Made by a program: the position numbers and the translations under genes
In this document: one piece after another, positions 5,158 to 43,951 of the stretch
Layout of the letters: each line of letters starts with the position of its first letter
How positions within the stretch are numbered: position 1 is the stretch's first letter
Notes under the pieces: model-generated
Database searches by the model: none
Told to the model about the DNA's origin: nothing
Seen by the model: the letters and a program-made list of their open reading frames with translations, nothing else
Source: Candidatus Rokuibacteriota bacterium
Lineage (GTDB): Bacteria > Methylomirabilota > Methylomirabilia > Rokubacteriales > CSP1-6
Assembly (NCBI GenBank): GCA_016209385.1
Contig: JACQWB010000265.1
Coordinates: 13,977-77,976 of the forward strand
Direction of reading: 5' to 3'
Length of the DNA: 64,000 nt

Positions 5158-6362
5158 CCCCATCGGGCCAGCGCCTTTCCCTCTGCATGATCGTGCGCGA
5201 CGAGGAGCAGCGCCTCGCCGGGTGCCTGGCCGCTGCCCGGCCGCAGGTGGACGAGATCGTCGTGGTGGACACGGGCTCCACCGACCGGAGCGCCGAGGTC
5301 GCGTTGGGCTTCGGAGCCAAGGTGGCTCACTGGGCGTGGCGCGACGACTTCGCCGCCGCCCGGAATGAATCCCTCCGTCACGCCACCGGAGACTGGATCC
5401 TCGTCCTCGACGCCGACGAGCGGATCATCGCCGAGGAGTTCACCCAGCTCCATCCGCTCATGGAGCAGCCCGACGTCATCGGCATCGATCTCTGGCTCCG
5501 CTCCGAACTCCCTCCGGGCCAGCCGGCACCCTCGCTGGCGGCGCCGTACTGCCGGCTGTTTCGGAGCCTGCCGGGGGTCCGTTTCACGGGCAGGATCCAC
5601 GAGCAGGTGGCGCCCTCGCTTCGCGCCCTGGGCGGCAGAATCGTTCGCTCACAGGTCGAGATCCTCCATCTGGGTTACGCCGTCCCGGATGACGCCAAGC
5701 TCGCCCGCAACCTCCGCCTCCTCGCCCTGGAGCTGGAGGAGCGCCCGGACAATGCCTTCGTCCTCTTCAACCTCGGGCTGACGCTTGGAGCTCAGGCCCG
5801 GTGGCCCGAGGCGACGGAGGCGCTCCAACGCGCGCTCGCGACCCGGTCGGATCCGCTGGACCCACAGCTCCGGGCCCTGGCCTGGGCCAAGCTCGCCGAG
5901 GCCGCCCTCGCGCAGAGTCGCTGGAGCGATGCGCTGAACGCAAGCCGCCACGCCCAGGAGGGAAACGGCAAGCTGAGCCTCGCGCGCTTCGCCGAGGCCC
6001 GTGCCCGCTTCGAGCTGGGCCATACCAGGGGCGCCGAGGAGATCTTCGCGACCCTGCTCCAGGCCGCTCCGGACGCGCTCGGGATGACGCTCCACCGGCA
6101 CCTGGTGGCTCAGGCCCTCGGGATTGTCCGGCTTCGCCAGGGCGACTTCGCGGGCGCGGCCGACGCCCTCGCGCTCGCGGCGACCGACCGCGAGGATGGC
6201 GAGACGTGCTTCCTTCTGGGGAACGCCTACCTCGGTCTCCGCCGGCTCAATGCCGCCGCCCATTGGTACCGCCGGGCACAGGGCGCCGGGTACCGAGACC
6301 CGAAGCTCGACAAGCGCCTCGGCCTCTGCGAGACGGTCCTCCGAGAGCTGGAGCTGCGCTGA
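5154..6362 (+). CDS. GT2 glycosyltransferase with C-terminal TPR repeats
   Basis: LSLCMIVRDEE...[15 protein letters not shown]...[31 protein letters not shown] is a GT2 core. The C-terminal half is helical TPR-like (LGNAYLGLRRLNAAAHWYRRA). ATGA overlap with the upstream stop. Confidence 0.8.
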   Translation: MTPSGQRLSLCMIVRDEEQRLAGCLAAARPQVDEIVVVDTGSTDRSAEVALGFGAKVAHWAWRDDFAAARNESLRHATGDWILVLDADERIIAEEFTQLHPLMEQPDVIGIDLWLRSELPPGQPAPSLAAPYCRLFRSLPGVRFTGRIHEQVAPSLRALGGRIVRSQVEILHLGYAVPDDAKLARNLRLLALELEERPDNAFVLFNLGLTLGAQARWPEATEALQRALATRSDPLDPQLRALAWAKLAEAALAQSRWSDALNASRHAQEGNGKLSLARFAEARARFELGHTRGAEEIFATLLQAAPDALGMTLHRHLVAQALGIVRLRQGDFAGAADALALAATDREDGETCFLLGNAYLGLRRLNAAAHWYRRAQGAGYRDPKLDKRLGLCETVLRELELR

Positions 6363-6370
6363 GAACCGCG

Positions 6371-8125
6371 ATGGCCGACCCCACAGTCTCCCTCTGCATG
6401 ATCGTCAAGAACGAGGCCGCGGCGCTCCCCCGCTGTCTTGGGAGCGTCGCCGGCTGGGTGGACGAGATCGTGATCGTCGACACGGGCTCGACGGATCGGA
6501 CCCCTGAGATCGCGGTCGGCTTCGGCGCCAGGGTGGTGCACTGGGCCTGGCGGGATGACTTCGCCGCGGCGCGGAACGAATCCCTCCGCCACGCGACCGG
6601 CGACTGGATCCTCGTCCTCGACGCGGACGAGGCGCTCGCCGAGGGCTGCGCGCCCCGGCTGCGCGAGCTGATCCGGAACCCCGAAGCGGTGGCGTACCTG
6701 GTCAAGATTGTCTGCCCTCGCCAGGGCGATGGCGGGCTCGTCCGCCTCAACTGGTTCCCCCGGCTCTTCCGCAATCTCCCAGGGGTGGCCTTCGAGGGCG
6801 TCATCCACGAGCAGGTCATCGGAAGCCTGGCGGGCCGCGGCAGGATCGACTACTCGGACATCATCGTGGAGCACGCGGGGTACACGCTCGCGCCGGCAGA
6901 GCTCAGCGCCAAGGGGGAGCGGAACCTTCGTCTCCTCGAGCGCCAGCTCAACGATGACCCCACCTACGCCCCGGGATGGTTCCAGCTCGCCGAGACCTAC
7001 ATGCTCCTCGGGCGAGTGGACGAGGCCATCGACGCCTACCGACGCGCGCTACGCCTGCTGGAAGTCTCCTCCCTGACGCTCTCACCCCGCGTCGTGGCTC
7101 TGGCCCTCCAGAACCTCGGTGCCGCACACCTGGCACGCGGCGATACCGAGAAGGGAATCGACCATCTCCGCGAAGCCCTCCTGCTCGACCCCGACCTGCC
7201 CCCTGCCCACGTCCACCTGGGCCTCGCTGCGCTGAGGCGCGACGACCCGGGGGAGGCGGAGAAACACTTCGCTCGCGCGCTCGAAATCGCCGACCGCCTG
7301 AATCGCGAGCAGGATCCGGGCCGCGAGTACGAGATCTCGCCGTGGTTGATCCATTACCTTCGCGCCTGCGCGTTGGGGCAGCAGGGCAAGACCGACGCGG
7401 TCCGAGACGGTCTGCTGGCGGCTCTGCGACTCAACCCGGACCACGCGGAGAGCCTGTGGCTGCTTGCGCTGGCCTGCTCGGCCCTCAAAGAGTGGCCGCA
7501 GGCGCTCGAGGCGCTCGAGGCCCTGTCACGGCAGGGGCGGGATGACCTGCCGTACCACCTTCAGCGGGTCCAGGTGCTCCAGGCCCTCGAGCGCCACGAC
7601 GAAGCCGCCGCCGCCGCGCTGAGAGCCCTGGAGCGCGGTGCGGCCTCACGAGAGGCCCTCACGCTTGCCGCTCAGGCCCTGTGCCGGGACGGGCGCTGGA
7701 GCGAGGCAGCCGACGCGTACGAGAAGCTCGCCCGGCTCGTCCCTGACAACCCCCTGCCGCTGCTGGCGCTGGCCCACTGCCGGGAGGCAATGGGCGACCG
7801 GCCCGGTGCGTTCGCCGCGTATGAGCGCGCCGCCGCGATCGCTCCCGACGCCCCGCCCGTGCTCTTCGCGCTCGGGTCCTCGTGCCTGCGCGCGGGCCAG
7901 CTCGACGAAGCCGTGGCCTGCCTCGAGGAGGCGGCCGCCCGGGGCCCTGACCGGCCCGAGTACCTGGTGAACCTGACCCTCGCTCACCTGAAGCGGGGCG
8001 ACATGACACGCGCCCGCGAGGTCCTCGCCGAGCTGAGCGCCCGCGGGAGGGACCTGCCCCAGGCTGCCGAGCTCGACCGCCTCCTCCACCGCGTCGAGTC
8101 CGCCATAGAGGAGTCCTGCCCATGA
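6371..8125 (+). CDS. GT2 glycosyltransferase with long C-terminal TPR domain (paralog of 5154..6362). The six-frame ORF 5801..8125 has a spurious N-terminal extension; the start is taken at the ATG at 6371.
   Basis: [44 protein letters not shown]...[31 protein letters not shown] is near-identical in motif order to the preceding gene. About 380 aa of TPR-like repeats follow. The start lies 9 nt after the upstream stop. Confidence 0.75.
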
Positions 8126-8880: not shown

Positions 8881-11019
8881 GTGGCTCCCGTGTCGCCCAT
8901 GACCATCCTCACCTTTAACTGGAGCGAGCCGTTCCTCCACCTGCTGGCGAAGACCGGCCACCAGCTCGTCGTCTGCGACTGGATGCGGCCGTGGAATCCC
9001 GCCCACCGGCCGGTCGCGGCAAACATCCGCCGAGTCTCGTCGGAAGCCGACGCCCGCCAGCTCCTGGCCGACGGGCGTGTGGACTACGGGCTCGCCCTCA
9101 GGGTAGACGATCTCCTCTGGCTTGGCGAAGAGCGGACCCCGACCTTCTTTGTTGCGCGCCATCCGCTCCGCGACCAGGTGGTCGATGGGACTGCCTGGGC
9201 CGCAGGCCGTATCCGCGACCTGGTGGCGACACGTCTGGGAACGCACGGGCGGTTCGTCACAACATCCCCGCTGGTCCACCAGAGCTGGGGATTGGACGGC
9301 CCGGTGATCCCACCCGGGCTCGACCTTGCGGACTACGGCGGCTACACCGGGCACGTCCCGAGCGTGCTGAGCGTCGGTGACCCGGACGACGAGCGGGACT
9401 CGATGCCCGGCCTCGAGTTCCTCAACTCGGTGCTGTCCAACTTCTACTGGACCGTCATCCGCGTGACCCGGTTCCTCCACCACCGTGATGGAGAAGTCTG
9501 GGAGGACCTCAAGGCCGATTACCGCCGCCACCGGCTCTTTGCGTTCGCGCCCCTCGATCCCGACGCGGACGGCTACGGCCTGCCGCTGCTCGAGGCGATG
9601 GCCACAGGAATGCCCGTGGTCACGACGCCGCACCCCACCTCTCCCGTTCGCGAGGGTATCGACGGGTTCGTGGGTGAGGATCAGGAGAGCTTCGCGCGCT
9701 GGACAACCAGGCTTCTGTCGGATCCCGCCCTCGCGCACCGGCTGGGGGAGCAAGCGCGCCGGCGCGTGGCTGAGCTGTTCCCGCTCCAGGCGTTTTGTGA
9801 GCAGTGGGAGCAGGCTCTCTCGCACTGTGGTGGGGACGCCCGCGTCAAGCGTCTGCACCCCGCGGTAGACGCCTTACCGGATCAAGGCAGGACCCCCGCG
9901 ATGTCCGAGACCCGGAGGCGAGTCGTCCACCTCCGCCGCAGGCCCGAACGCCTGAAGATCCTGGTGAGCGTCGGAAACCATCCGACGCTCCCATCGGCGT
10001 ACTACGCGCGCGCGCTTCGCACGCGTCACGACGTGCTGACCTCCGGCCCGCCCCTCGATGACGAGCGGCTGGCCTCGACCCGGCAGGACCTGGAGCTGCG
10101 CAACCCGTTCAGATCGAAGGAGTCCGTCGGCGAAGCGATGGAGCTCCTCCGGCGTCTCAGACGCGCGCCCGACATCCCCATCCTGGAAAAGCACCCCCCG
10201 ATCACGGATCTCCTCGACCGGCTCCCCCGGAACTGGCGGCCGGACCTCTTCATCTGGTTCGACGACGACGTCCGCGACTTCATGCCGCAGGGGGTGGAAC
10301 GCCTCGACTGCCCCACCGCCTGCGTCATCAGCGATTTCCACATCGAGGGCCGCTTCAGGCTCGACCGCGCGCGCGCGTTCGATCACGTGTTCGTCATGTA
10401 CGACCGTCGGCACGTCCGCTACTTCGCGGAGGCCGGCTGCCGGAGCGTGCACTGGCTCCCGACCGCGTGCGATCCGGCGATCCACCGCGGCTTCGACGTC
10501 GAGAAGGCCTTCGATATCGTCTTCATCGGCCAGACCCGGCCCTCGAACAACCCCGACCGCTTCCGCCTACTGACCCGGCTCATGCGCGGTGGGTTCGACG
10601 TATTCGTGACAACCAAGTACCTGGAGGACGCGACGCTCGCCTTCTCCCGCGCGCGGATCGTCTTCAACTGCAGCCTGGTCGGCGGGCTGATCCAGCGGGT
10701 GTTCGAAGCCTGCGCCTCCGGGAGCCTCCTGCTTACCAATCGACTGGCGCCGGAAACCGGGCTCGACGAGCTGCTGCAGGACCGCGTCCACCTGGTCTGC
10801 TACGACGACCACAACTTAGACGCGCTCGCGCAGTACTACCTCGAGCATCCCGACGAGCGCGAGGCAATCGCCCGCGAAGGTCAGCGCGAGGTCCTGGCGC
10901 GCCACACGTACGCCCACCGCGTCGAGAGCCTCTTGACGGCGGTCTTCCGCCCGGCGGCGACCGTCTTACCCCCGGTGCCGACCCGTGGCGCTGTGCTCGT
11001 CCCCGTGAACGCCCCCTGA
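8881..11019 (+). CDS. CgeB-like (DUF3880 + group-1 GT-B) glycosyltransferase, 712 aa
   Basis: C-terminal 350 aa is collinear with aa 320-660 of the megaprotein (NWRPDLFIWFDDDVRDF...CPTACVISDFH...AGCRSVHWLPTACDP...RARIVFNCSLVGGLIQRVFEACASGSLLLTN...LDALAQYYLEHPDEREAIAREGQREV). The N-terminal half contains a GT-B-like E-A-M-A motif (LPLLEAMATGMPVVTTP). GTG start at 8881; an alternative ATG lies at 8899. Confidence 0.7.
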   Translation: MAPVSPMTILTFNWSEPFLHLLAKTGHQLVVCDWMRPWNPAHRPVAANIRRVSSEADARQLLADGRVDYGLALRVDDLLWLGEERTPTFFVARHPLRDQVVDGTAWAAGRIRDLVATRLGTHGRFVTTSPLVHQSWGLDGPVIPPGLDLADYGGYTGHVPSVLSVGDPDDERDSMPGLEFLNSVLSNFYWTVIRVTRFLHHRDGEVWEDLKADYRRHRLFAFAPLDPDADGYGLPLLEAMATGMPVVTTPHPTSPVREGIDGFVGEDQESFARWTTRLLSDPALAHRLGEQARRRVAELFPLQAFCEQWEQALSHCGGDARVKRLHPAVDALPDQGRTPAMSETRRRVVHLRRRPERLKILVSVGNHPTLPSAYYARALRTRHDVLTSGPPLDDERLASTRQDLELRNPFRSKESVGEAMELLRRLRRAPDIPILEKHPPITDLLDRLPRNWRPDLFIWFDDDVRDFMPQGVERLDCPTACVISDFHIEGRFRLDRARAFDHVFVMYDRRHVRYFAEAGCRSVHWLPTACDPAIHRGFDVEKAFDIVFIGQTRPSNNPDRFRLLTRLMRGGFDVFVTTKYLEDATLAFSRARIVFNCSLVGGLIQRVFEACASGSLLLTNRLAPETGLDELLQDRVHLVCYDDHNLDALAQYYLEHPDEREAIAREGQREVLARHTYAHRVESLLTAVFRPAATVLPPVPTRGAVLVPVNAP

Positions 11020-15354: not shown

Positions 15355-16278
15355 GTGACGTCCGACTTCCGGCTCCTCATGATCAGCGCGATGTACGAGA
15401 ACGGGGGCAACGCAACCCACCGGTTCCTCGACGGCCATCCGCAGCTCTTCGTCTATCCGTTCGAATCGCAGCTTGGCACCCGGCTCGTCGGTGACCACCT
15501 GGCTTCCCTCTTCCCCGTGAAGTACCGCTGGCCCGTCTTCGCCCTCCACGCGACGCCCCGCGAGGACTACGAGACCATTATCGATGAGGAGTGCCGCGTC
15601 CGGGCCCGCACCCCCCACGTGAGCAAGTTCCGCCACGTGGCGTTCGACTTCTCCGACGAAGATCGGCGGGCGATCTACGAGCGGTACGTGGGCGAGACCG
15701 GACGGTCGCGCGCCGCCAACGTGGCCGCGTTTTTCCGGGCCACCTTCCACGCGTGGCGGAACCACGCCCGGACCGGCGCGGAGGTGGCGTACGTCGGGTA
15801 CAGCCCCATCGTCGTCGTGGACGCCGACAGGATCCTGGCCGATTTTCCGCAGGCCCACGTGCTTCACGTCGTGCGCAATCCGTGGTCCGCCTACGCCGAC
15901 ACGAAGCGGCGCCCGGTCCCCCTCCCCCTGCCCCAGTACATGCTCGCCTGGACGGTGAGCCAGTACCATGCGCTGATCTTCAGCGAGCGCTTCCCCGGGC
16001 AGGTCCACATCGTCCGGGCCGAAGACATCATGGCCGGCCCCCTCGCCACCCTGGGCACGCTCTGCGACCGCCTGGGGCTCGAGCGCGCAGAGGCCCTCAG
16101 ACGGCCGAGCTGGAACAGCCAACCACTCGAGGAGGTCTACCCGTGGGGGACCCTCCGCGCGGTCACGCCCGAGGCCAACCTGGCCACCGCCCGGGAGCTT
16201 TCGGAGGAGGAGCGCGCGGATATCCGGTCCTTCGCCTGGCAGTACCTCGACGCCTTCGACTACAAGCGGTTCCTCTAG
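15355..16278 (+). CDS. Sulfotransferase-family protein
   Basis: LLMISAMYENGGNATHRFL resembles a 5'-PSB-like loop, and HVLHVVRNPWSAYAD resembles the 3'-PB RNPxD motif. GTG start with a GAGGAGGG SD upstream; an alternative ATG lies at 15379. Confidence 0.65.
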   Translation: MTSDFRLLMISAMYENGGNATHRFLDGHPQLFVYPFESQLGTRLVGDHLASLFPVKYRWPVFALHATPREDYETIIDEECRVRARTPHVSKFRHVAFDFSDEDRRAIYERYVGETGRSRAANVAAFFRATFHAWRNHARTGAEVAYVGYSPIVVVDADRILADFPQAHVLHVVRNPWSAYADTKRRPVPLPLPQYMLAWTVSQYHALIFSERFPGQVHIVRAEDIMAGPLATLGTLCDRLGLERAEALRRPSWNSQPLEEVYPWGTLRAVTPEANLATARELSEEERADIRSFAWQYLDAFDYKRFL

Positions 16279-16344
16279 CAGGGTACTGAAAAACTCGACT
16301 CGAATGCGCCAATCATCCACCCGCACACGGCCGAAGCGCTCCGA

Positions 16345-16363
16345 GCGCGGGCTAGGCCCGCGC
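16345..16363 (+). terminator. Perfect 8-bp GC stem with a 3-nt loop in the sulfotransferase-epimerase intergenic region
   Basis: GCGCGGGC-tag-GCCCGCGC. A second imperfect hairpin GGAAGGGGG-acgaa-GCCCCCCTCC lies at about 16383..16407, just before the epimerase SD. Confidence 0.3.
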
Positions 16364-16417
16364 AACCTCTGGGGGAGGTTCGGAAGGGGGACGAAGCCCC
16401 CCTCCGAGGATGTCTAG

Positions 16418-17455
16418 ATGGCGAAGCGCGTCCTGATCACCGGGGCGGCCGGGTTTGTCGGCGCAAACCTGAGCCGGCGACTCCTCCGCGACGGGCACGA
16501 CCTCCACCTCCTGGTCAGCCGTCGCACCCCGGCTTGGCGGATCGACCCGATCCGGAGCGAGGTCCGGGTGTACGACGTGGATCTCAGGGACGGTGAGACC
16601 GTTGCGCGCGTGGTCCGCGCCATCCGGCCCGAGTGGGTCTTCCACCTGGCCGCCTACGGCGCCTATCCCTCGCAGACGGCCCTTCACCGGATGGTCCAGA
16701 CTAATATCGTCGGCACGATTAACCTGGTGGAGGCGTACCTCAGGACCGGGTGGGAGGCATTCGTCAACACCGGCTCGTCGTCTGAGTACGGCTTCAAGGA
16801 CCACGCGGCGTCAGAGCGGGAGCTGCTCGAGCCGAACAGCCACTACGCGGTGACCAAGGCCTCCGCGACACTCTTCTGCCGCTATACAGCTCGTAGTCGC
16901 GGCGTCCACCTGCCGACACTCCGCCTCTACTCGGTCTACGGGCCGTTTGAAGAGCCGGGGCGGCTCATACCGACGCTGGCCCTTGACGGGCTGGAGGGAA
17001 AGCTGCCGCCGCTGGTGAGCCCCGATGTCGCCCGCGACTATGTCTGCGTCGAAGACGTCACGGACGCCTACCTCCTGGCCGCTGCACGGACCGCCCAGGA
17101 ACCTGGCGCCATCTACAACGTGGGAACCGGCGTTCAGACTCCCCTGCGGGAGGTCGTTGCGCTTGCGCGCCGGGTCCTGGGGATCCCGGTCGAGCCCGCG
17201 TGGGGGTCGATGCCGCCCCGGCAGTGGGACACCCCGGTCTGGGTCTCGGACGCCCGAAGGATCCGGGATGACCTGGGCTGGCGCCCCCGCTACACGCTCG
17301 AGGCCGGCTTCCGCCTCACGGTGAAGTGGTTCCAGGATAACCGCCACCTGCACCGCCTCTACCGGGCGGGCCAGTGCCGCTCGGCCGAAGCCTCACATGG
17401 CCGCGGGGAAGTCTGGGTCAGCTTTTCAGGCCGGGCTGCCGAACACTTCCCCTAG
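16418..17455 (+). CDS. NAD-dependent NDP-sugar epimerase/dehydratase (extended SDR). The C-terminal ~20 aa are encoded by repeat copy A and may be read-through.
   Basis: MAKRVLITGAAGFVGANLSRRL is a Rossmann GxxGxxG motif. YxxxK active site (YAVTKAS). SD 9 nt upstream. Confidence 0.8.
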   Translation: MAKRVLITGAAGFVGANLSRRLLRDGHDLHLLVSRRTPAWRIDPIRSEVRVYDVDLRDGETVARVVRAIRPEWVFHLAAYGAYPSQTALHRMVQTNIVGTINLVEAYLRTGWEAFVNTGSSSEYGFKDHAASERELLEPNSHYAVTKASATLFCRYTARSRGVHLPTLRLYSVYGPFEEPGRLIPTLALDGLEGKLPPLVSPDVARDYVCVEDVTDAYLLAAARTAQEPGAIYNVGTGVQTPLREVVALARRVLGIPVEPAWGSMPPRQWDTPVWVSDARRIRDDLGWRPRYTLEAGFRLTVKWFQDNRHLHRLYRAGQCRSAEASHGRGEVWVSFSGRAAEHFP

Positions 17456-17482
17456 CGAACGCCGGGGCCTCCGGCGAAGGGA
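17415..17482. repeat. Direct repeat copy A (~68 bp). It is about 80% identical to copy B at 18021..18088 and contains TCAGCTTT-N12-GCCGAACA.
   Basis: gggtcagcttttcaggccgggctgccgaacacttcccctagcgaacgccggggcctccggcgaaggga, compared with copy B gggtcagctttccagctctgcctgccgaacactccccatgcgaacgcgcgtggcctccgccgaagggg. Confidence 0.7.
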
Positions 17483-17508
17483 CCGGGCGCAATCTTCTCC
17501 GCAGTCGG

Positions 17509-17931
17509 TTATCCACGGATTCTCTCCTCCAGCTCCTGGATGCGGGCCTGGAGGGCCGCAACCTGGCGCTTCAGCTCTTCCAGGCTCCGCTCGAGGATTT
17601 CCCGCCGGCCTCGCTCATCGACCAGCAGAGTCTCGATCCGCCGGAGGGCCTGGAGGATCGCCTGATATTCTTGCTCCAGTCGTTCGAGGCGGCGGTAGAT
17701 CTCGTCGAAATGCCCCAGGATGTCTCGGAGCTGCTGCTCGATGGTGTCGAACCGCGCTTCGAAGCGCTGCTCCATGGACACAAACCGGCGGTCCATCTCG
17801 ATGAACCTGCGGTCCATCTCAACGAACCGGCCGTCGATCTGGGCAAAGCGGTCGTCAATCTCGCCAAACCGGCGACCGAGGAACTCAACGAGCTGCTGGT
17901 AGTCGCTATTGGGCATTGGGGGAGGTGCCAC
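17509..17931 (-). CDS. Small charged coiled-coil protein with internal 7-aa (21-bp) tandem repeats, of unknown function, lying between the glycan island and the flagellin gene
   Basis: Clean helical, charged sequence ...IDDRFAQIDGRFVEMDRRFIEMDRRFVSMEQRFEARFDTIEQQL...LEELKRQVAALQARIQELEERIRG. The plus-strand ORF over the same DNA translates to Cys/Arg/Pro-rich junk. Start uncertain: GTG at 17931 or ATG at 17916. Confidence 0.5.
   Translation of the reverse strand: MAPPPMPNSDYQQLVEFLGRRFGEIDDRFAQIDGRFVEMDRRFIEMDRRFVSMEQRFEARFDTIEQQLRDILGHFDEIYRRLERLEQEYQAILQALRRIETLLVDERGRREILERSLEELKRQVAALQARIQELEERIRG
17785..17880. repeat. Four to five 21-bp tandem repeats (GCGGTCCATCTCGATGAACCT-like) inside the coiled-coil CDS
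   Basis: Top strand reads gcggtccatctcgatgaacct / gcggtccatctcaacgaaccg / gccgtcgatctgggcaaagcg / gtcgtcaatctcgccaaaccg. These encode the DxRFxEM heptads. Confidence 0.7.
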
Positions 17932-18020
17932 CCGCGGAAACCCGCACCCCTCACTTCTACCCCAGACTCGCCCGCCTGTTCAAGTGTCTCGAAAAAGATG
18001 CACGAGGGTTGTCTCAGGCG

Positions 18021-18088
18021 GGGTCAGCTTTCCAGCTCTGCCTGCCGAACACTCCCCATGCGAACGCGCGTGGCCTCCGCCGAAGGGG
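18021..18088. repeat. Direct repeat copy B, about 130 bp upstream of the flagellin ATG
   Basis: See copy A. The two copies are 606 bp apart and flank the coiled-coil gene. Confidence 0.7.
18024..18051 (+). promoter_or_regulatory. Candidate sigma-28 (FliA)-like promoter for the flagellin gene, inside repeat copy B
   Basis: TCAGCTTT-N12-GCCGAACA, compared with the enteric class-3 consensus TAAAGTTT-N11-GCCGATAA. The -10 half matches 6/8. The identical motif is present in copy A at 17418..17445. Confidence 0.3.
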
Positions 18089-18158
18089 GGTGAGCTGGTG
18101 AGCTGAGACGGGGGCTGCGACACGAGACGAGTCAGCAGAGCGAAATTGCAAACTCTCT

Positions 18159-18192
18159 GGGCACGGATGCCCAGAAGCCGGGCATGCCCGGC
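18159..18192 (+). promoter_or_regulatory. Two adjacent GC hairpins in the flagellin 5' UTR, sharing a GGGCA/TGCCC core
   Basis: GGGCA-cgga-TGCCC at 18159..18172, and the perfect 16-bp palindrome GCCGGGCATGCCCGGC at 18177..18192. These are followed by the AAGGAGGA SD at 18201 and the ATG at 18219. Confidence 0.5.
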
Positions 18193-18218
18193 GAACAACC
18201 AAGGAGGAGAGCTTATCC

Positions 18219-19049
18219 ATGCCAGCTACCGGTGATCTGACACGGATTCGGACCAACCTCGCCGCCCTCAACGCCCTCGAAGCCCTCAGGCAGATCAACT
18301 CGCGCCTGGGCGTCGCCCAGTTGAGGCTCTCGACCGGGAGGCGGATCAACTCCGCGGCCGACGACCCCTCCGGGTTGACCTTGTCTAACAAGCTGGATGT
18401 CCAGGCCCGACGGATGGGCCAGGCCATCAGCAACATCGGCGACGCCGAGAACGTCCTGAACATCGCCGAGGGCGGGCTCCAGAACCTCCAGTCGCTCCTG
18501 AACGAGATGAGCGAAAAGGTCCTGCAGGCGGCCAACGACACCCAGGGCACCAACGAGCGGGCGTCCATCTTCCAGCAGCTCCAGCAGCTCGGGGAAGAGG
18601 TCGACTCGGTCGCCCGGCAGACCCAGTTTAACAACGTGGTCCTCCTGACCAACCAGACCATGACCTTCCAGAGCGGCCCGGACGGCGCCGACATCACCGT
18701 CTTTAGGATCTCAAGCGCCTTCACTTCCGCTGCCCTGTCGGTGAACAACCTGACGGTGGCGAGCCAGACCCTGGCCAGCACCTCGCTGGGCTCGGTCACC
18801 GCGGCTCTCAACTCGGTGTCCACCGTGCTCCAGCAGCTCGGTGCGTCGCTCCAGCGCATGCGCATCAAGGCCGACAACCTCTCGATCGGCAAGCTCAACG
18901 TTATCGCGGCTCAGAGCCGGATCATGGACGCCGACCTGGCGGCCGAGCAGCTTGAATCCTCCAAGCTGCAGATCCTCCAGCAGACGGCCACCGCCATGCT
19001 GGCCGCGGCCAACAACGGGCCAGCGTCGATCCTGGCCCTGTTCCAGTAA
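18219..19049 (+). CDS. fliC: Flagellin, a short 276-aa form containing only the D0/D1 domains
   Basis: N-terminal LTRIRTNLAALNALEALRQINSRLGVAQLRLSTGRRINSAADDPSGLTLSNKL and C-terminal LESSKLQILQQTATAMLAAANNGPASILALFQ are the canonical flagellin N and C helices. Strong SD. Confidence 0.9.
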   Translation: MPATGDLTRIRTNLAALNALEALRQINSRLGVAQLRLSTGRRINSAADDPSGLTLSNKLDVQARRMGQAISNIGDAENVLNIAEGGLQNLQSLLNEMSEKVLQAANDTQGTNERASIFQQLQQLGEEVDSVARQTQFNNVVLLTNQTMTFQSGPDGADITVFRISSAFTSAALSVNNLTVASQTLASTSLGSVTAALNSVSTVLQQLGASLQRMRIKADNLSIGKLNVIAAQSRIMDADLAAEQLESSKLQILQQTATAMLAAANNGPASILALFQ

Positions 19050-19057
19050 GCAAGAAG

Positions 19058-19104
19058 CGCTCGGGGAGCGCGGGAGGTCAGGGCAACCGGCCTCCCCGCT
19101 CTCC
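19058..19104 (+). terminator. GC-rich stem-loop after the flagellin stop. It lacks a clear U-tract, so it may be an intrinsic terminator or attenuator.
   Basis: cgctcggggagcgcgggagg-tcagggcaaccgg-cctccccgctc forms an imperfect 11-12 bp stem. Confidence 0.3.
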
Positions 19105-19141
19105 TGAGCGGGACCAATGAGACAAGGAGGCAAGCGCGAAG

Positions 19142-19465
19142 ATGCCCGCTACTGCTGAAAGCTACGCACGGACGGCATACCTCGAAACCCACACGCGGGG
19201 AATGTCTCCCCAGCAGGTGCTGCTCCAGCTCTACGATATCGCCATCGCCGGCTGCGTGGCCCGGGACATGCGCCGGGCCAGCGCCGCGCTGGTGGAGCTG
19301 ATCGCCGCCCTCGACTTCAGCTATGAGGAGATCGCCCGCGGCCTCTACCGGCTCTACGAGTACGCGCTCCGGGAAGTCAAGGCGGAGCGTTACGAAACTC
19401 CGATCAACATCCTCCGTGAGCTCCGGGACACCTGGGAGCAGGCCTTCGCCGCGATGCCTGGATAG
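19142..19465 (+). CDS. fliS: Flagellar export chaperone FliS
   Basis: 107 aa. LLQLYDIAIAGCV...LIAALDFSYEEIARGLYRLYEYALREV is typical of FliS. AAGGAGG SD. Confidence 0.8.
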   Translation: MPATAESYARTAYLETHTRGMSPQQVLLQLYDIAIAGCVARDMRRASAALVELIAALDFSYEEIARGLYRLYEYALREVKAERYETPINILRELRDTWEQAFAAMPG

Positions 19466-19468
19466 TCC

Positions 19469-20911
19469 ATGGCCGATATCACCGCGATCGGGACCCTCGC
19501 CACGCCGGCTCAGCTGGCCGAGCTGGCCAGGCGGCTCCTGGCGAGGGACCGCGTGCCGCTCCAGGCGCTCCAGGATCGGCAGAGCCTGCTCAACAAGCGC
19601 TCATCGGTCCTGGGGACGCTCCGGGGCAAGCTCTCCCTGCTCAAGGGCGCCCTGGATCAGTTTCTCCAGCCGGGGACCCTCTCCCCCTTCGCGGCCAAGA
19701 GCGCTACCTCGAGCGACACGGCGCTCCTGGGCGCGGCCGCGTCCACGAGCGCGAGCGCGGGAAGCCACACCGTCGTCGTGAACCAGCTCGCGAAGCGAAG
19801 CACGTTCGCGTCGGCGGTCTACACGGACAGCGGCACCGCGATCTCCGGGGCGGGCACCGGGACGTTCAACTTCACGCTGACGATCAACGGCACTGCGTAC
19901 ACGGCCTCGGTCACCGTCAATGCGGGGGACACGGATCGGACGGTTCTCAGTAACGTGGCAACGGCCATCACCAACGCCGTATCCGGGAAAGCCACGGCCG
20001 TCGTGGTGGCTACCGAGAGCGGGAAGTCGCGGCTGTCGCTGGCCAGCACAGAGACGGGGACCGCCAACAATATCGCCTTCACCGACACCGACGGCCTCCT
20101 GGGCCGGCTCGGCCTGACCAACGCGACCGCGGCCACCGACACGGACGGGGGGTACATCTACAAAGACCTCGGCAACCACGAGCTGGACGCCAAGGTCACG
20201 CTCAACGGCCTCACCTACTACCGGGAGTCCAACACGATCTCGGACCTGATCGCGGGGCTCACCTTCACCCTGAAGGCGGCCGATGCCTCGAAAACCGTGA
20301 CGGTCAACGTGGAGCCCGATGCCGACGGCATCCTCGCGAAGATCAAGGACTTCATCACGAAGTACAACGACGTCCTCGACTTCCTCGCCGCGAACAGCGC
20401 GGTGGACACCAAAGCGGGCACGCGCGGGGTTCTGTCGCTGGACCCGGTGGTGTCGGGATTCCGGAGCCAGCTCCGATCGCTGGCGGCGACCGTGGTCGGC
20501 TCGGCGGCGAGCGGCGACCCGAACAGCCTGCCTGCCCTGGGCATTCTGGCCGGCGCCGACGGCAAGCTCTCGATCTCCAACGAGACGACCCTCAAGGACA
20601 CGATCAAGTCCGACCCCACGGCGGTCTCGACGGTCTTCGCGGCGACCTCTGACGGTGTGGCCACCAAGATCGAGGACTTCATCGACGACTACACGGGCGC
20701 CGGCGGCCGCATCAGCGCCACCCAGACCCAGCTCTCGACCCGGATCAGGGGGCTCGACACTCAGATCGCGCGGATGAAGGCAGCGCTGGAGAAAAAACAG
20801 CTCGCGCTCCAGCAGCAGCTCGCCCGTGACCAGTCGGTGCTCGTCGCCCTGAACCGGCAGCTCGCCCAGGTCCAGAAGTTCTTCACCACGCTGTCGGGGA
20901 CGACGACATAG
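19469..20911 (+). CDS. fliD: Flagellar filament cap protein FliD (HAP2)
   Basis: N-terminal helices with SLLNKRSSVLGTLRGKLSLLKGALDQF. C-terminal TQTQLSTRIRGLDTQIARMKAALEKKQLALQQQLARDQSVLVALNRQLAQVQ coiled coil. Confidence 0.85.
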   Translation: MADITAIGTLATPAQLAELARRLLARDRVPLQALQDRQSLLNKRSSVLGTLRGKLSLLKGALDQFLQPGTLSPFAAKSATSSDTALLGAAASTSASAGSHTVVVNQLAKRSTFASAVYTDSGTAISGAGTGTFNFTLTINGTAYTASVTVNAGDTDRTVLSNVATAITNAVSGKATAVVVATESGKSRLSLASTETGTANNIAFTDTDGLLGRLGLTNATAATDTDGGYIYKDLGNHELDAKVTLNGLTYYRESNTISDLIAGLTFTLKAADASKTVTVNVEPDADGILAKIKDFITKYNDVLDFLAANSAVDTKAGTRGVLSLDPVVSGFRSQLRSLAATVVGSAASGDPNSLPALGILAGADGKLSISNETTLKDTIKSDPTAVSTVFAATSDGVATKIEDFIDDYTGAGGRISATQTQLSTRIRGLDTQIARMKAALEKKQLALQQQLARDQSVLVALNRQLAQVQKFFTTLSGTTT

Positions 20912-20927
20912 GAAGGGGGGGACAACG

Positions 20928-21206
20928 ATGGTGGACGCGGTGCGGCCGATCCCGTCGGCGCGAGGAGGCCTCCCCGGTCTGCTCTCCCGGCCCTCGGGGA
21001 GCGGAGGGCCGAGGCCTGAGCCCGACAGGGTCCGGCCAACCTCAACCCGGGTGGCGTTTTCCCCGCGGGAGAACGGGGACATTCTTGTTCGGGTGCTCGA
21101 CGGAGCCACAGGCGAGCTGATCCGGCAGATTCCGCCGGAGGCGGAGCTGAAGCTGGCTGCCGCCGTCACCGCTCTCGCCCGACGCTTCCTGGGTCTGGAT
21201 GGCTGA
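20928..21206 (+). CDS. flaG: FlaG-family flagellar protein
   Basis: 92 aa. The C-terminal block ILVRVLDGATGELIRQIPPEAELKLAAAV matches the FlaG signature (VxVxDxxTGEVIRQIP). Confidence 0.7.
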   Translation: MVDAVRPIPSARGGLPGLLSRPSGSGGPRPEPDRVRPTSTRVAFSPRENGDILVRVLDGATGELIRQIPPEAELKLAAAVTALARRFLGLDG

Positions 21207-25438: not shown

Positions 25439-25999
25439 TTAGCCGAGAATCGTCTCTACCGTCAGGCTGACGTCGCGGAAGGCTTCCAGGGAGATCGTTT
25501 CGCCGCGCGGGATCCGCCGGAAGTTTCGGTAGCCATCCGGCGTCGGGTCTCTATACTCTTCGACAGTTTCGGTTGAAAGGTCAACGAGCCACGCGTTGGG
25601 AATCCCCGCGCGAGCATACAGGGGAATCTTCACGGTTCGGTCAAACTCCACTGAGGTGTCCGCCACTTCGACCACAAGCCACACGTCCTCCGGTCCCGGG
25701 TGCGCCTGGGCATAGAAGTCAGGCCGGGGTCGAAGCAGGGCGAGGTCGGGCTGGGGTTCAGAGTGGAGACCAAGACCCAGAGGGCTTTGGACGGACACCG
25801 TGATCCGTTGACCGAGAAGCGAGTTGAACAGGTGACCCAGACGCCGTACGCACGCGGCATGGCGGGCGCCGATAGGGGTCATCTCAATTATCTCCCCTTC
25901 GATGAGCTCCACGCGATCATCTTCGGAGAAGACACCCGCCTGGCCCATCCGATGGTACTCCTCGACACTGAACCGGCGCCTGAGAAGCTGAACGTCCAT
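25439..25999 (-). CDS. Uma2-family (DUF820) putative restriction-endonuclease-like protein
   Basis: MDVQLLRRRFSVEEYHRMGQAGVF...RVELIEGEIIEM...PDLAL...VWLVVEV is the Uma2 signature. ATG at 25999 carries a purine-rich RBS; an alternative ATG lies at 26023. The track ORF is extended to 26095. Confidence 0.7.
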   Translation of the reverse strand: MDVQLLRRRFSVEEYHRMGQAGVFSEDDRVELIEGEIIEMTPIGARHAACVRRLGHLFNSLLGQRITVSVQSPLGLGLHSEPQPDLALLRPRPDFYAQAHPGPEDVWLVVEVADTSVEFDRTVKIPLYARAGIPNAWLVDLSTETVEEYRDPTPDGYRNFRRIPRGETISLEAFRDVSLTVETILG

Positions 26000-26091
26000 C
26001 GCCTTTTTCCTTGCTCCGACCATATGACGGAAAGAGAGGGTCGTCAAGTGTATCGGATCTGCTGCGCTCCAAGTTCTGTGGCTGACAGCAA

Positions 26092-26592
26092 TCATCCACC
26101 TTGTGGGCGGGCTAGGCGCTGGCGGACCAGCGCGGGGAGGTAGCCCGGGTCGGCAGCCGCGTCGGCTTTCGACACGAACTCGACGCCGGCGTGCCGGAGC
26201 TCCGGAGCCGGCGGCGCGTCACCCGTCACCACCATCACCGGCACGTCCCGGAGTCCCGACTCCTTGGCCATGGCTCCGATCAGATCCATTCCCGACCGGA
26301 GCGATCCCCCTTCCGGAACGCGGAGCCAGAGGTCCACGATCACGAGGGCGGGCCGGAGACGTCGGATCCCCTCGAGCCCGTCGTCGGCGGTGTCGCTCGA
26401 GGCGGTGCGGAAGCCCCCGCGCTGGAGAAAGAGCTGGAAGCAGCGGGCCAGCTCGGGATCGTCATCGATCACCAAGACCAACGGCGCGCCGTCCGGACCC
26501 TGTGGATCCCAGGGTCCCTGAGTCAGTTGCGACCCCTCACCATCGCGGTCCCTCACCCGTCGCGTGTCGCCCGGTCGTGAACCCGTCCTCAA
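26092..26592 (-). CDS. Single-domain response-regulator receiver (CheY-like), paralog of 28417..28872
   Basis: PLVLVIDDDPELARCFQLFLQRGGFRTASS...PALVIVDLWLR...VPVMVVTGD is the receiver fold, with an acidic pocket DDD and a phospho-acceptor D in IVDL. Confidence 0.65.
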   Translation of the reverse strand: MRTGSRPGDTRRVRDRDGEGSQLTQGPWDPQGPDGAPLVLVIDDDPELARCFQLFLQRGGFRTASSDTADDGLEGIRRLRPALVIVDLWLRVPEGGSLRSGMDLIGAMAKESGLRDVPVMVVTGDAPPAPELRHAGVEFVSKADAAADPGYLPALVRQRLARPQGG

Positions 26593-28416: not shown

Positions 28417-28872
28417 TCACCCGCCAGCCTCGGCCCGCCGATCAGCCGGCGGCGACGCCAGTCGGCGTCGGACCAGATCGGGGAGGCGTGTTGGGTCGGC
28501 CGCGGCGGCGGCCTTCGCGACGAACTGAACCGCGCGGTCCCCGAACTGGTCGGGCTCCGGGACGTCGCCCGTCATGACGATCACGCGCAGGTCTCGGAGC
28601 GCTGGGTCCTCGCCGAGCGCCCGGATCAGGTCGGCCCCGGACTGGAGCGCCGCTCCCTCCCGGCTGCGGAGCCACAGGTCCACGATCGCGAGCGCCGGCC
28701 TGAGCGTCCGGATCCCGTCGAGGCCATCCGAGGCGGTCTCGGCGGACGCGGTCCGGAAGCCGCCCCGCTGGAGGAAGAGCTGGAAGCAGCGGGCCAGGTC
28801 CGCATCGTCCTCGACTAGGAAGACGAGCGGGGCACTCTCCGGGCCCTGGGCGATCCAGCGCGTCTGACTCAC
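28417..28872 (-). CDS. Single-domain response-regulator receiver (CheY-like), paralog of 26092..26592, translationally coupled to the lasso-cluster nucleotidyltransferase
   Basis: PLVFLVEDDADLARCFQLFLQRGGFRTASAETASDGLDGIRTLRPALAIVDLWLR. GTG start with a GGAGG SD 7 nt upstream, 13 nt after the stop of the upstream gene. The track ORF is extended to 28941. Confidence 0.65.
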   Translation of the reverse strand: MSQTRWIAQGPESAPLVFLVEDDADLARCFQLFLQRGGFRTASAETASDGLDGIRTLRPALAIVDLWLRSREGAALQSGADLIRALGEDPALRDLRVIVMTGDVPEPDQFGDRAVQFVAKAAAAADPTRLPDLVRRRLASPPADRRAEAGG

Positions 28873-41065: not shown

Positions 41066-42528
41066 GCGCGCCTCCGGACGAAAATCGGATTGGAGAGGAG
41101 CCGGTGGGGTTTCTTGATGTCGATCCTGAAGAACTCGCGGCTCCCCGGCGCGGGCGGGGTCGCCTGCACGACCGTCTGGAACGGGGTCCTGCTCTCGAGG
41201 ACCGAGAGCACTCGGCCGGAGCGGATCAGCCTCAGGGTGAAGGGCACCTCCCGCCCGTCGCTGGCGGCGATCCGGAGGCTGACCAGCACGGGCCCTCGCC
41301 CGTGGGCTTCCAGCTCCCCTCCCATCGGCGTCCGCACGCGGCCGTCCTGGCCAACGGAGAAGTCCTCGAGCACGAGCGAGTACTCGGGCACCGGCGTGAC
41401 GGCGTAGTGCCGCCCCGCCCTGAGGGCCGAGAGGACACCCTCCCGAGAGCGTTCACGAACCAGGAAGATCGTCAGGACGTCGCCGAGCTGCTTCGCGGGG
41501 CCGTGGTAGCCCAGCTCGCCGATTCCCCAGGCTGGTCGAGTCCGGCGTCCCTGAGCGTACTCCAGGAGGAGCCGGTCCCAGTGCCGCCCTGGCTCTGTGA
41601 AGGTCACGTGGTCACCGTAGAGAGCCCCGAATCCCGTGTACCCGTGGCTCTGGAGCAGCGCCTCCGGGTACGGGTCGGTCCGGACCACCACCTGCCCCAG
41701 CCGGCCCATGTCGATGCGCTCGAAGTCCCGCGCCTCGGGAAAGGACCAGAGGACGGCCCCGCCCCGGGATTCGGCGTATTCGATCACACGCTGGTACGGC
41801 CCGATCCCCAGGCTCCCCTGGTACGCGTTGAGCTCCGAACCGGCGAAGGCCTCGAGCACGAGGAGCACGCCGAGCCCGATGGCCGACCATCCAGCCAGGC
41901 GGTACCGCGCCGGGACTTTGAGGGTGAAACGGGTCAGCCTGATCTCTCGGGCTCGCCGCGCTGTCAGCAAGCGAAGCCCGCAGCCGATCACCCCGACGGC
42001 CAAGGACAGCTTGAACACGCCCGCCCACCCGAACCCTGAAGCGCTCCCGTTTCCAATGGCCGGGATCTGCTCGTGGCTTTCGGCGCTGGAAAGGCCGACC
42101 ACCAGGAGGTTCTTCTGGACATCCCACAGGGTGAGATCTCCGCGCAGCGGGGAGCCGGTCCAGTAGTAGTGGGGGATGACTTCGACGCCGGGGATCAGGA
42201 TCACGTCGGGAAACCTCGCCTGGGCCGCCTCGACAGAGCGGAGCCACTGCCCGTTCCCAAGCCCCAGGACGGAAGGCCTTTCCACGACCTTCTTGACGAG
42301 GCCCCGGAAAGGAAAGAGGCCGTACTCGAACCGGAGGACGAAGTTCTCGGACAAGATCACGGCCCCGATCCCTTCCCGTCGCGCCGCTTCAACGACCTCA
42401 TCCAGGGAGCGGGAGCCGGTGGAGGCGGTCGTGTGAACATGGACCACGCCCTTCACCTGAAGGAGTGCGGTCTCGGCTTCCCCTGCCAGGAAGACGACCC
42501 CAAGGCCGGCGAGGATGAGCGCCTTCAT
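41062..42528 (-). CDS. PHP-domain protein with signal peptide and internal TM helices, a possible CpsB-type phosphoesterase
   Basis: VVHVHTTASTGSRSLDEVVEAARREGIGAVILSENF is the PHP HxH metal-binding start. Hydrophobic segments lie near aa 150-230. Confidence 0.5.
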   Translation of the reverse strand: MKALILAGLGVVFLAGEAETALLQVKGVVHVHTTASTGSRSLDEVVEAARREGIGAVILSENFVLRFEYGLFPFRGLVKKVVERPSVLGLGNGQWLRSVEAAQARFPDVILIPGVEVIPHYYWTGSPLRGDLTLWDVQKNLLVVGLSSAESHEQIPAIGNGSASGFGWAGVFKLSLAVGVIGCGLRLLTARRAREIRLTRFTLKVPARYRLAGWSAIGLGVLLVLEAFAGSELNAYQGSLGIGPYQRVIEYAESRGGAVLWSFPEARDFERIDMGRLGQVVVRTDPYPEALLQSHGYTGFGALYGDHVTFTEPGRHWDRLLLEYAQGRRTRPAWGIGELGYHGPAKQLGDVLTIFLVRERSREGVLSALRAGRHYAVTPVPEYSLVLEDFSVGQDGRVRTPMGGELEAHGRGPVLVSLRIAASDGREVPFTLRLIRSGRVLSVLESRTPFQTVVQATPPAPGSREFFRIDIKKPHRLLSNPIFVRRRA

Positions 42529-43742: not shown

Positions 43743-43951
43743 CGAGAGATCCTCGGAGGGGGGCTCCGCCCCCCTTCCGAACCTCCCCCAGAGGTTGCGC
43801 GGGCCAAGCCCGCGCTCGGAGCGCTTCGGCCGTGTCCAGGTGGACGATTGGAGCATTCGAGTGGAGCTTTCCAGCACCCTGCTCTAGTCCCTCTGGCTAT
43901 CGCCGGGCTGCCCGTATCGGGGCGCGTAGCAGCCGAGCGTCGTGATAGGGA

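Follow-up and report, generated by a model that had tools for sequence, protein, structure and literature searches.

Class-3 flagellar promoters of the FliA/SigD/WhiG type, such as those of E. coli fliC and B. subtilis hag, follow a sigma-28 consensus in which a -10 element of the GCCGATAA type is preceded at a distance of about 11 nt by a -35 element of the TAAA(GTTT) type, the TAAA lying 15 nt from the -10; transcription begins about 6-8 nt 3' of the -10 and requires the sigma-28 protein. Many bacteria carry flagellin genes in tandem, each under its own promoter, and in B. subtilis the hag leader has two sites for CsrA, of which one lies in a hairpin and the other covers the Shine-Dalgarno sequence. 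For Rokubacteria we know of no experimental promoter data. The motif table of PMC4183435 includes sites that end in GCCGATAA. In E. coli the majority of FliA sites lie inside genes; these are active, give rise to unstable RNAs and show no conservation (Fitzgerald et al., PMC4183435; bioRxiv 10.1101/188474), and intragenic FliA promoters in E. coli and Salmonella are mostly without function (bioRxiv 10.1101/188474).

Here we analyse a 64-kb stretch of DNA (the window) from a Candidatus Rokubacteria lineage, in which a block at the flagellin promoter (copy B) recurs about 600 bases upstream (copy A). Our main reading, to which we give a probability of roughly 0.62, is that copy A arose secondarily, as a duplicate of copy B particular to this lineage, the latter copy being a sigma-28-type flagellin promoter, and that it is an orphan promoter, probably a by-product and not a conserved device. 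The features that matter for the argument are as follows.

16418-17455, forward strand: gene for an NAD-dependent sugar epimerase/dehydratase of 345 aa (Pfam PF01370, E = 4.8e-46)
17396-17484, no strand assigned: segment of ~89 nt specific to the window in comparison with the related locus L001, comprising copy A, ~14 nt to its left and 3 nt to its right (from the alignment, junctions read by eye)
17415-17481, forward strand: copy A, putative duplicate promoter block, with a -35-like element TCAGCTTT at 17418-17425, a -10-like element GCCGAACA at 17438-17445 and a predicted start near 17452-17454
17509-17931, reverse strand: small coiled-coil gene, likely true start ATG at 17916 (135 aa)
17954-18000, reverse strand: the coiled-coil gene's own sigma-70-like promoter block, with -10 TAGAAG at 17954-17959, -35 TTGAAC at 17978-17983, then GAGACAC and a T-tract to ~18000
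18021-18087, forward strand: copy B, predicted native flagellin promoter block, including the initial ~30 nt of the leader; -35-like element TCAGCTTT at 18024-18031, -10-like element GCCGAACA at 18044-18051, predicted start near 18058
18058-18218, forward strand: predicted flagellin 5' leader, with a purine-rich, Shine-Dalgarno-like box (18082-18093), a GGA-loop hairpin (18157-18174), a second hairpin (18177-18192) and an AAGGAGG ribosome-binding site (18201-18207)
18219-19049, forward strand: flagellin gene (Pfam Flagellin_N, Flagellin_C)
19142-19465, forward strand: fliS (Pfam FliS)
19469-20911, forward strand: fliD (Pfam FliD_N, FliD_C)
20928-21206, forward strand: flaG (Pfam FlaG)

An earlier note on this DNA had described direct repeats of about 68 bp and about 80% identity with the same sigma-28-like motif in each, and both observations are borne out. 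In a gapped local alignment the two copies share ~84% identity over 66 aligned columns (9 mismatches, 2 single-base gaps) and score 77, compared with 19.0 +/- 2.8 and a maximum of 30 for 300 dinucleotide shuffles of both flanking regions; the repeat is thus confirmed to be real and far above chance. It is 67-72 nt long and spans the -35, the -10 and ~30 nt of the 5' leader; the ungapped part found by the repeat search runs from 17410 to 17451 and from 18016 to 18057, and upstream of 17410 the test for homology was not significant. Both copies contain an exact TCAGCTTT-N12-GCCGAACA (17418-17445 in A, 18024-18051 in B), and these are the only two matches to the motif with up to 3 mismatches in the 64 kb, where 0.33 would be expected by chance. 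All 9 mismatches and both gaps fall outside the 8 + 8 motif bases, for which we estimate a chance of ~0.03. Copy A is also no artefact of the MAG assembly, since the independently assembled Logan contig L062 (run SRR12113401) is 100% identical to the window over 16379-17580 and includes it.

The motif TCCGCTT/TCAGCTTT-N12-GCCGAACA is found 5' of the flagellin genes in ~10 related metagenomic loci (L001, L040, L043, L044, L046, L047, L049, L050 and L051 among them), which encode flagellins of 62-87% protein identity and whose upstream regions share the ungapped register GGGTC(C/A)GCTT(C/T)-N-TGCCGAACAC. The distance from the -10 to the start codon is 155-188 nt in the type 1 loci, that is, those with the same promoter and leader type as the window, 61 nt in L040 and 73 nt in L051. 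A scoring matrix trained on 15 non-window sites only gives 23.6 bits to copy A and the same to copy B; no other site in the window scores above 16.2, and in 20 shuffled windows the best site averaged 16.0 bits and never exceeded 19.1. Strong matrix matches in the related loci lie nearly all 5' of flagellin genes; one match outside the training set, with the canonical GCCGATAA, lies 5' of fliS in L047, and no orphan copy of the block was found in ~133 kb of these loci. The search for further copies that the earlier note had proposed, upstream of other flagellar genes, thus returns only A and B in the window, and in the related loci flagellin promoters together with the single fliS site. Judged by this conservation at orthologous positions, copy B is the native, conserved flagellin promoter of this Candidatus Rokubacteria lineage, and it is placed, as had been proposed, to drive the flagellin gene: with the end of its -10 at 18051 and the flagellin start codon (ATG) at 18219, the leader is ~160 nt long and contains two clear hairpins.

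We infer from the motif and its position that this promoter depends on sigma-28. Copy B lies where such a promoter would be expected, 5' of late flagellar genes and at orthologous sites, and it resembles class-3 flagellar promoters in its two-block form, with a GCCGA-containing -10 and a T-rich -35 about 12 nt further upstream, placed 5' of flagellin and conserved across orthologues; copy A has no flagellar gene directly downstream. Set against the enteric consensus (the host here being a member of Rokubacteria), the -10 GCCGAACA matches GCCGATAA at 6/8 positions and the -35 TCAGCTTT matches TAAAGTTT at 5/8, and where class-3 promoters have TAAAGTTT and an N11 spacer, those described here have TCAGCTTT or TCCGCTTC and N12. 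The FliA-like character that had been claimed for the motif is supported in that the repeat carries a flagellin-type, sigma-28-like element; the 5/8 match in the -35 and a spacer that is 1 nt longer speak against it. In the annotated parts of the window, no gene for a fliA/sigD-type sigma factor was found.

The predicted leader folds with -72.4 kcal/mol (z = -2.15), and its GGA-loop hairpin is conserved with compensatory changes. It shares with the B. subtilis hag leader a conserved hairpin with GGA in the loop (GCACGGAUGC) and the AAGGAGG ribosome-binding site; it differs in that no csrA or fliW was found in the window or the related loci (for csrA, a tblastn search with an approximate E. coli CsrA sequence gave nothing significant), and the hairpin lies outside the repeat. 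An Rfam search of 16000-20000 returned no match. A 5'-terminal stem-loop within the repeat was considered and rejected, RNAalifold giving only a weak 4-bp consensus helix and part of the stem lying upstream of the predicted start. Taken together, these loci allow the flagellin promoter and leader of Rokubacteria, an uncultured phylum, to be compared for the first time; the picture comprises a sigma-28-like TCCGCTT-N12-GCCGAACA, a purine-rich box that is conserved, and a hairpin with GGA in its loop ahead of the ribosome-binding site.

The epimerase ORF ends within copy A, and copy A points into the coiled-coil gene on the antisense strand, exactly as the earlier note had placed it. The final 14 codons of that ORF and its stop codon (TAG, 17453-17455) lie within the repeat, and the part of the coiled-coil gene that the repeat faces is the 3' end. 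Epimerase homologues are ~322 aa long and cover 91% of the query, the window protein having a C-terminal tail ~20 residues longer: 8-14 residues follow the conserved LY motif in the homologues, L001 included, and 31 follow it in the window protein. A likely origin of this tail can be read from L001, which is the sole syntenic relative, since the epimerase homologues (P0122) are not syntenic. L001 has ~82% nucleotide identity to the window and the same order of epimerase, coiled-coil gene, flagellin, fliS and fliD; it has copy B and lacks ~89-95 nt exactly at the site of copy A, and its spacer shows no significant similarity to the repeat that would indicate a remnant. The window-specific segment begins after the codon TCA (17393-17395), which aligns with the TGA stop of L001, and because it starts at the ancestral stop codon the epimerase ORF is prolonged by 20 codons, the inserted segment encoding the additional tail. 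At the right edge of the indel (~17484) the boundary matches the end of the homology between A and B (17481), and on the left the insert opens with ~14 nt that bear a weak resemblance to the region 5' of B, although the test for homology was not significant. Of the other loci, L042 is 97% identical to the window but begins at 18428 and is apparently chimeric upstream, and L040 has a different upstream region.

Copy A thus appears to be derived relative to L001, and we infer from this one relative that the event was an insertion in the lineage of the window. In a three-way comparison of A, B and the B of L001, unique changes number ~7-8, 4-5 and 5, respectively, which points to a duplication near the split of the two lineages and is compatible with loss in L001. 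In the model we favour, ~70-90 nt would have been inserted directly 3' of the ancestral stop codon of the upstream epimerase, that stop (TGA in L001) would have become TCA, and the ORF would continue for 20 codons into the insert. As the promoter elements of A are unchanged, it is predicted to recruit the same holoenzyme as B; from a start near 17452, transcripts would extend to the right in the direction of the flagellin gene, crossing the convergent coiled-coil gene in antisense. The most likely outcome would be a by-product transcript, with at most mild interference with the coiled-coil gene during flagellin expression, and the lack of copy A in L001 argues against a conserved role. The duplicated FliA promoter that the earlier note had put forward as one of two explanations stands as regards the duplication, both elements of the B block being intact in A and B being conserved, with sigma-28 dependence and an antisense RNA from A as its predicted parts.

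A close parallel is with the intragenic and orphan FliA promoters of E. coli and Salmonella (Fitzgerald et al., PMC4183435; bioRxiv 10.1101/188474), where a sigma-28-type motif likewise lies in or at the end of an unrelated gene, antisense to a neighbour, and is likewise not conserved in the nearest relative. The E. coli sites, however, are chance matches in coding DNA, whereas copy A is ~70 nt copied from a real flagellin promoter and the start of its leader, and its host ORF has been lengthened. It illustrates clearly how, in nature, a short block with a promoter can be copied into the end of the gene next to it, leaving an orphan promoter and a longer protein, and it exemplifies duplication, alongside chance mutation, as a source of intragenic or antisense promoters. 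Since copy A is absent from the closest relative, we regard it as a modest evolutionary curiosity and not as a new kind of element, and the duplicated block reveals no new mechanism.

It is possible, if unlikely, that copy A has been kept for a function, be it as a second, distal sigma-28 promoter giving a long flagellin transcript, as a dedicated antisense or transcriptional-interference switch that turns the coiled-coil gene off while late flagellar genes are expressed, or as a sigma-28 decoy. Both promoter elements have been kept perfectly while the spacer and flanks diverged, the matrix score equals that of B, and a terminator scan found no terminator-like site between A and the flagellin gene. 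Against this, copy A is not conserved in L001, the homologues of the coiled-coil gene elsewhere have no tie to flagella, and comparable sites in E. coli and Salmonella are mostly functionless (bioRxiv 10.1101/188474). Perfect conservation of the motif could nonetheless mean function, in which case the by-product reading would be too dismissive.

A more specific and rather improbable proposal is that the duplication wired the coiled-coil gene into flagellin control. By one route, sigma-28-driven antisense RNA from A could shut down the coiled-coil gene during flagellin production. By the other, the 3' UTR of the coiled-coil mRNA could base-pair with the flagellin leader over its initial ~30 nt: the reverse complement of A lies 27-57 nt after the coiled-coil stop and may therefore be part of that 3' UTR, and the predicted duplex between it and the flagellin leader has -60.6 kcal/mol, compared with -40.5 +/- 4.6 for shuffles, with a gain on cofolding of ~-20 kcal/mol. 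If true, this would be an interaction between an mRNA 3' UTR and a 5' leader created by the copying of a promoter.

The other explanation offered by the earlier note was insertion of the coiled-coil gene as a cassette, with duplication of the target, such that the gene and its promoter would have entered an ancestral flagellin promoter and leader region and duplicated a target of ~68 bp to give A and B. The gene itself is real, given its more than 1100 homologues (1133 at E <= 1e-3), and its codon GC pattern is typical of coding sequence; no curated family in Pfam or NCBIfam reaches its cut-off, generic coiled-coil matches being sub-threshold only. A promoter block like GAGACACTTGAAC-N17/18-TAGAAG also lies 5' of the homologues in L001, L002, L005, L065 and L066, all in unrelated contexts. 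The gene and this promoter form a module of ~500 nt (17509 to ~18003) that recurs in unrelated contexts and sits between the repeats in the window, both of which would suit a cassette. The repeats, however, do not abut the module, from which they are separated by spacers of 26 nt (A side) and ~17 nt (B side). In L001 this module occupies the corresponding position, accompanied by copy B and by neither A nor a remnant of it, and a subsequent deletion would need to have taken out precisely the repeat; the presence of the gene there without A means that insertion with target duplication is not supported. The homologues in four other genomic contexts (L002, L003 and L005 among them) have no flanking direct repeats. 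Transposases usually duplicate 2-14 bp of target, far below the 68 bp needed here, and no transposase, integrase or terminal inverted repeat was found between the repeats, where the coiled-coil gene is the only ORF with homologues. We thus give this explanation little credence.

Equally, there is only a slim chance that copy A is the relic of a lost tandem flagellin gene, the upstream gene having been replaced by the coiled-coil gene and its promoter left stranded. The arrangement fliC1-fliC2-fliS-fliD is common in the relatives (L044-L053), each flagellin gene having its own sigma-28-like promoter, and the likeness to the window lies in a flagellin-type promoter repeated within a few hundred bases. 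However, the two tandem promoters and leaders of the relatives are of two distinct types that cannot be aligned, whereas A and B are both of the fliC1 type and near-identical in kind, and copy A precedes an unrelated gene in reverse orientation. In addition, the interval between A and B holds no flagellin coding remnant (best tblastn match, E = 0.67), the stop codon of the coiled-coil gene is just 26 nt away from A, and L001 lacks copy A.

That the block is not a promoter at all, and instead a dispersed repeat of the REP/MITE kind, a protein-binding site or a terminator hairpin, is very hard to credit, for although the unique changes of A create a perfect 6-bp GC hairpin (CGCCGG-GGCCT-CCGGCG, 17460-17476) between convergent genes, no U-tract follows it, the terminator scan found nothing there and Rfam has no match for the block, which in the window and the related loci shows neither the many copies at unrelated intergenic sites nor the palindromic form of REP/MITE elements, being present in two copies in 64 kb, without orphans in the ~133 kb of related loci, where it keeps a constant distance and orientation 5' of flagellin genes, and not palindromic overall.

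In a collection of genome contigs without the source genome, 34 matches to TCAGCTTT-N11-TGCCGAACAC were found, all in unrelated phyla, which we attribute to chance. None of these loci has flagellin, fliS or fliD near the match, and the recurrent ones among those examined lie inside conserved coding sequence, for example in fabB-like genes.

The duplicated block has one copy at the 3' end of an epimerase gene and one before a flagellin gene, with a coiled-coil gene separating the two; the window has a G+C content of 68%, and this part of it is laid out as follows.

15355-16278: sulfotransferase
16418-17455, + strand: NAD-dependent epimerase/dehydratase
17415-17481: copy A of the direct repeat
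17509-17931, minus strand: coiled-coil protein, 135-140 aa
17954-18000, minus strand: conserved block upstream of the coiled-coil gene (T-tract, then GAGACACTTGAAC-N17/18-TAGAAG-like)
18021-18087: copy B of the direct repeat
18219-19049: flagellin, followed by FliS, FliD and FlaG

In a gapped local alignment the two copies are ~84% identical (9 mismatches, two gaps of one base each). The alignment scores 77, whereas dinucleotide-shuffled versions of both regions score 19.0 ± 2.8 and 30 at most; the ~68-bp repeat pair described in an earlier note is borne out, as is the sigma-28-like motif assigned there to both copies. This motif, TCAGCTTT-N12-GCCGAACA, is exact in A and B, which are the only matches with up to 3 mismatches in the whole 64 kb. 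A Logan contig of independent assembly (L062, run SRR12113401) matches 16379-17580 at 100% identity, copy A included, which rules out an artefact of the MAG assembly as the source of the duplication. The epimerase is 100% identical to an NCBI protein labelled Candidatus Rokubacteria bacterium.

A protein-guided scan of metagenome contigs provided 22 flagellin loci. The same two-block motif is found upstream of the flagellin gene in relatives at 62-87% protein identity, where the upstream regions align without gaps as GGGTC(C/A)GCTT(C/T)...TGCCGAACAC, and the distance from the -10 block to the start codon is 155-188 nt in loci sharing the promoter/leader type of the window (type 1). A position matrix trained on 15 sites, none of them from the window, scored both copies at 23.6 bits; the next best window site on either strand reached 16.2, and in 20 shuffled windows the best site averaged 16.0 and never exceeded 19.1. 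Copy B can accordingly be regarded as the flagellin promoter, as had been proposed. The search for further copies that the note called for yielded none in the window, while in ~133 kb of related loci strong matrix matches were essentially flagellin promoters. By its GCCGA core, its spacing and its place before flagellin genes, the motif fits promoters of the sigma-28 (FliA/SigD) class. Its -35 half represents a lineage variant. Annotation, where it covered the window, revealed no fliA gene. We infer that the block depends on sigma-28, in line with the suggestion of a duplicated FliA-type promoter, and predict that the repeat is this promoter plus ~30 nt of transcribed leader.

A fliC1-fliC2-fliS-fliD tandem with two distinct promoter/leader types is usual in relatives (L044-L053), with type 1 before fliC1 and a second type, TCCGA(A/T)-N12-GCCGATCAC, before fliC2; the window and its syntenic relative L001 have one flagellin gene only, with a promoter of the fliC1 type. 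In one tandem locus (L047, 2778-2807) a sigma-28-like site outside the training set, with the canonical -10 GCCGATAA, lies between fliC2 and fliS, a sign that fliS-fliD may have a late promoter of their own there; the matrix scored no equivalent in the fliC-fliS spacer of the window.

Only one syntenic relative was found, L001, a JGI metagenome contig of ~82% nucleotide identity. It carries an epimerase gene, a coiled-coil gene (91% identical), flagellin, fliS and fliD in this order, and both motif halves are exact in its copy B. The distance from the epimerase to the stop codon of the coiled-coil gene is 53 nt there, compared to 148 nt in the window, and this 53-nt spacer has no significant similarity to the repeat. 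The L001 epimerase ends in ...SDEAA-TGA, whereas the window has ...SAEA-TCA at 17393-17395 with the reading frame running on, and homology picks up again at ~17484-17486 (GGGCGCAA). These junctions define a window-specific stretch of ~17396-17484, almost all of which is taken up by copy A (17410/17415-17481); the end of A/B homology coincides with the right edge of this stretch. Because the TGA position is now TCA, the epimerase ORF continues to a TAG at 17453-17455 inside copy A, 31 residues past the conserved LY motif; homologues (~322 aa) end 8-14 residues past it, L001 likewise. The simplest history would be a duplicative insertion in the lineage of the window, placing ~90 nt of flagellin promoter region directly after the epimerase stop codon, a direction that rests on one relative. 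A rough three-way count of unique changes (~7-8 in A, 4-5 in B, 5 in the copy B of L001) dates the duplication to around the time when the two lineages separated. Loss of copy A in L001 is a possible alternative. The three closest flagellin relatives show three different upstream layouts.

All differences between A and B fall outside both motif octamers (rough probability of such a pattern ~0.03), so that copy A is expected to be recognised no less well than B. Its predicted transcript would start near 17452 and run antisense through the coiled-coil gene and, since no terminator-like site was found between copy A and the flagellin gene, could extend into the flagellin leader. Intragenic sites make up more than half of the FliA sites in E. 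coli (PMC4183435); most of these intragenic sites are active, give unstable RNAs, lack conservation and were considered unlikely to have a function (bioRxiv 10.1101/188474). Given this precedent, the lack of copy A in L001 and the occurrence of coiled-coil homologues in unrelated metabolic contexts, we consider a by-product or mildly interfering transcript most likely. A selected role is possible; an antisense role is not conserved in L001. We thus predict that copy A is an orphan intragenic promoter made by duplication; like the flagellar late promoter it derives from, this is a known kind of feature, of which we have a new example here.

Copy A might instead be the relic of a second flagellin gene's promoter, as the tandem is common in relatives; however, the two promoters there are of different, non-alignable types while A and B are of one type, and no flagellin remnant was found between them. 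The earlier note also considered a coiled-coil cassette inserted with target duplication. With 1133 homologues at E ≤ 1e-3, the coiled-coil ORF is a real gene, though no curated family cut-off was reached; the family (>1100 members) occurs in scattered genomic contexts. Its upstream block, which resembles a promoter of the sigma-70 type and may include a regulator site, also precedes the homologues in L001 and in four loci of other context (L002, L005, L065, L066), so that the gene behaves as a module of ~500 nt. The cassette is nonetheless not supported: in L001 the gene is present but the left repeat is not, the homologues checked in other contexts (L002, L003, L005) lack flanking repeats, neither a mobility gene nor an inverted terminus was found, and the repeat exceeds the length expected of a target duplication and is separated from the module by spacers. 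A REP-like repeat or terminator is contradicted by the presence of two copies only in the window, always in promoter geometry, and by the missing U-tract after the perfect hairpin at 17460-17476, which is unique to copy A.

Other repeats were also seen. A 144-nt non-coding segment occurs twice, inverted and 27 kb apart (16277-16420 and 43740-43883, 91% identity); its copies end exactly at the ATG of the epimerase (16418, +) and of a GT4 glycosyltransferase (42525-43742, minus), and contain GC-rich hairpins followed by a GAGGA ribosome-binding site, without a match in Rfam. With copy A on its other side, the epimerase is thus flanked by duplicated regulatory-looking blocks. Three pairs of internal direct repeats (5246-5420 / 6457-6631, 1380-2021 / 10263-10904 and 26111-26410 / 28457-28756), given as 68-85% identity and 175-300 nt, are located among the glycosylation genes and close to a Uma2-family gene (25439-26095), and are probably paralogous gene segments. 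A contig 97% identical to 18428-19331 (L042, 1-1921) is joined in frame, upstream of the homology and at flagellin residue 71, to a Rieske-like ORF that is unrelated; a chimeric assembly is probable, a real rearrangement possible.

The start of the flagellin leader, GCGAACGC...GGCCTCC...GAAGGGGGGTGA, is partly conserved among relatives, and RNAalifold gave at most a weak 4-bp consensus helix for it. Further down, a GCACGGA(A/U)GC-loop hairpin at 18157-18174 is followed by an AAGGAGG ribosome-binding site at 18201-18207. The hairpin is conserved in L001 and seven related flagellin loci (L043, L044, L046, L047, L049, L050, L051), and its stem covaries, with 90% of cells paired, compensatory changes in 3/6 pairs and a score of 0.337, compared to 0.109 ± 0.039 for shuffles (0/500 reach 0.337). 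The arrangement resembles the B. subtilis hag leader with its two CsrA sites; a csrA-like gene was not found in the window or in related loci. A purine-rich, Shine-Dalgarno-like box (GAAGGGGGGTGA, 18082-18093) lies ~25-40 nt into the leader, far from the start codon, and is conserved at the same position in L001, L043, L044, L046, L047, L049 (as GGGGAGGAGGTGA), L050 and L040. No conserved leader ORF follows it; possible roles of the box are the binding of ribosomes or CsrA and the stabilisation of the mRNA.
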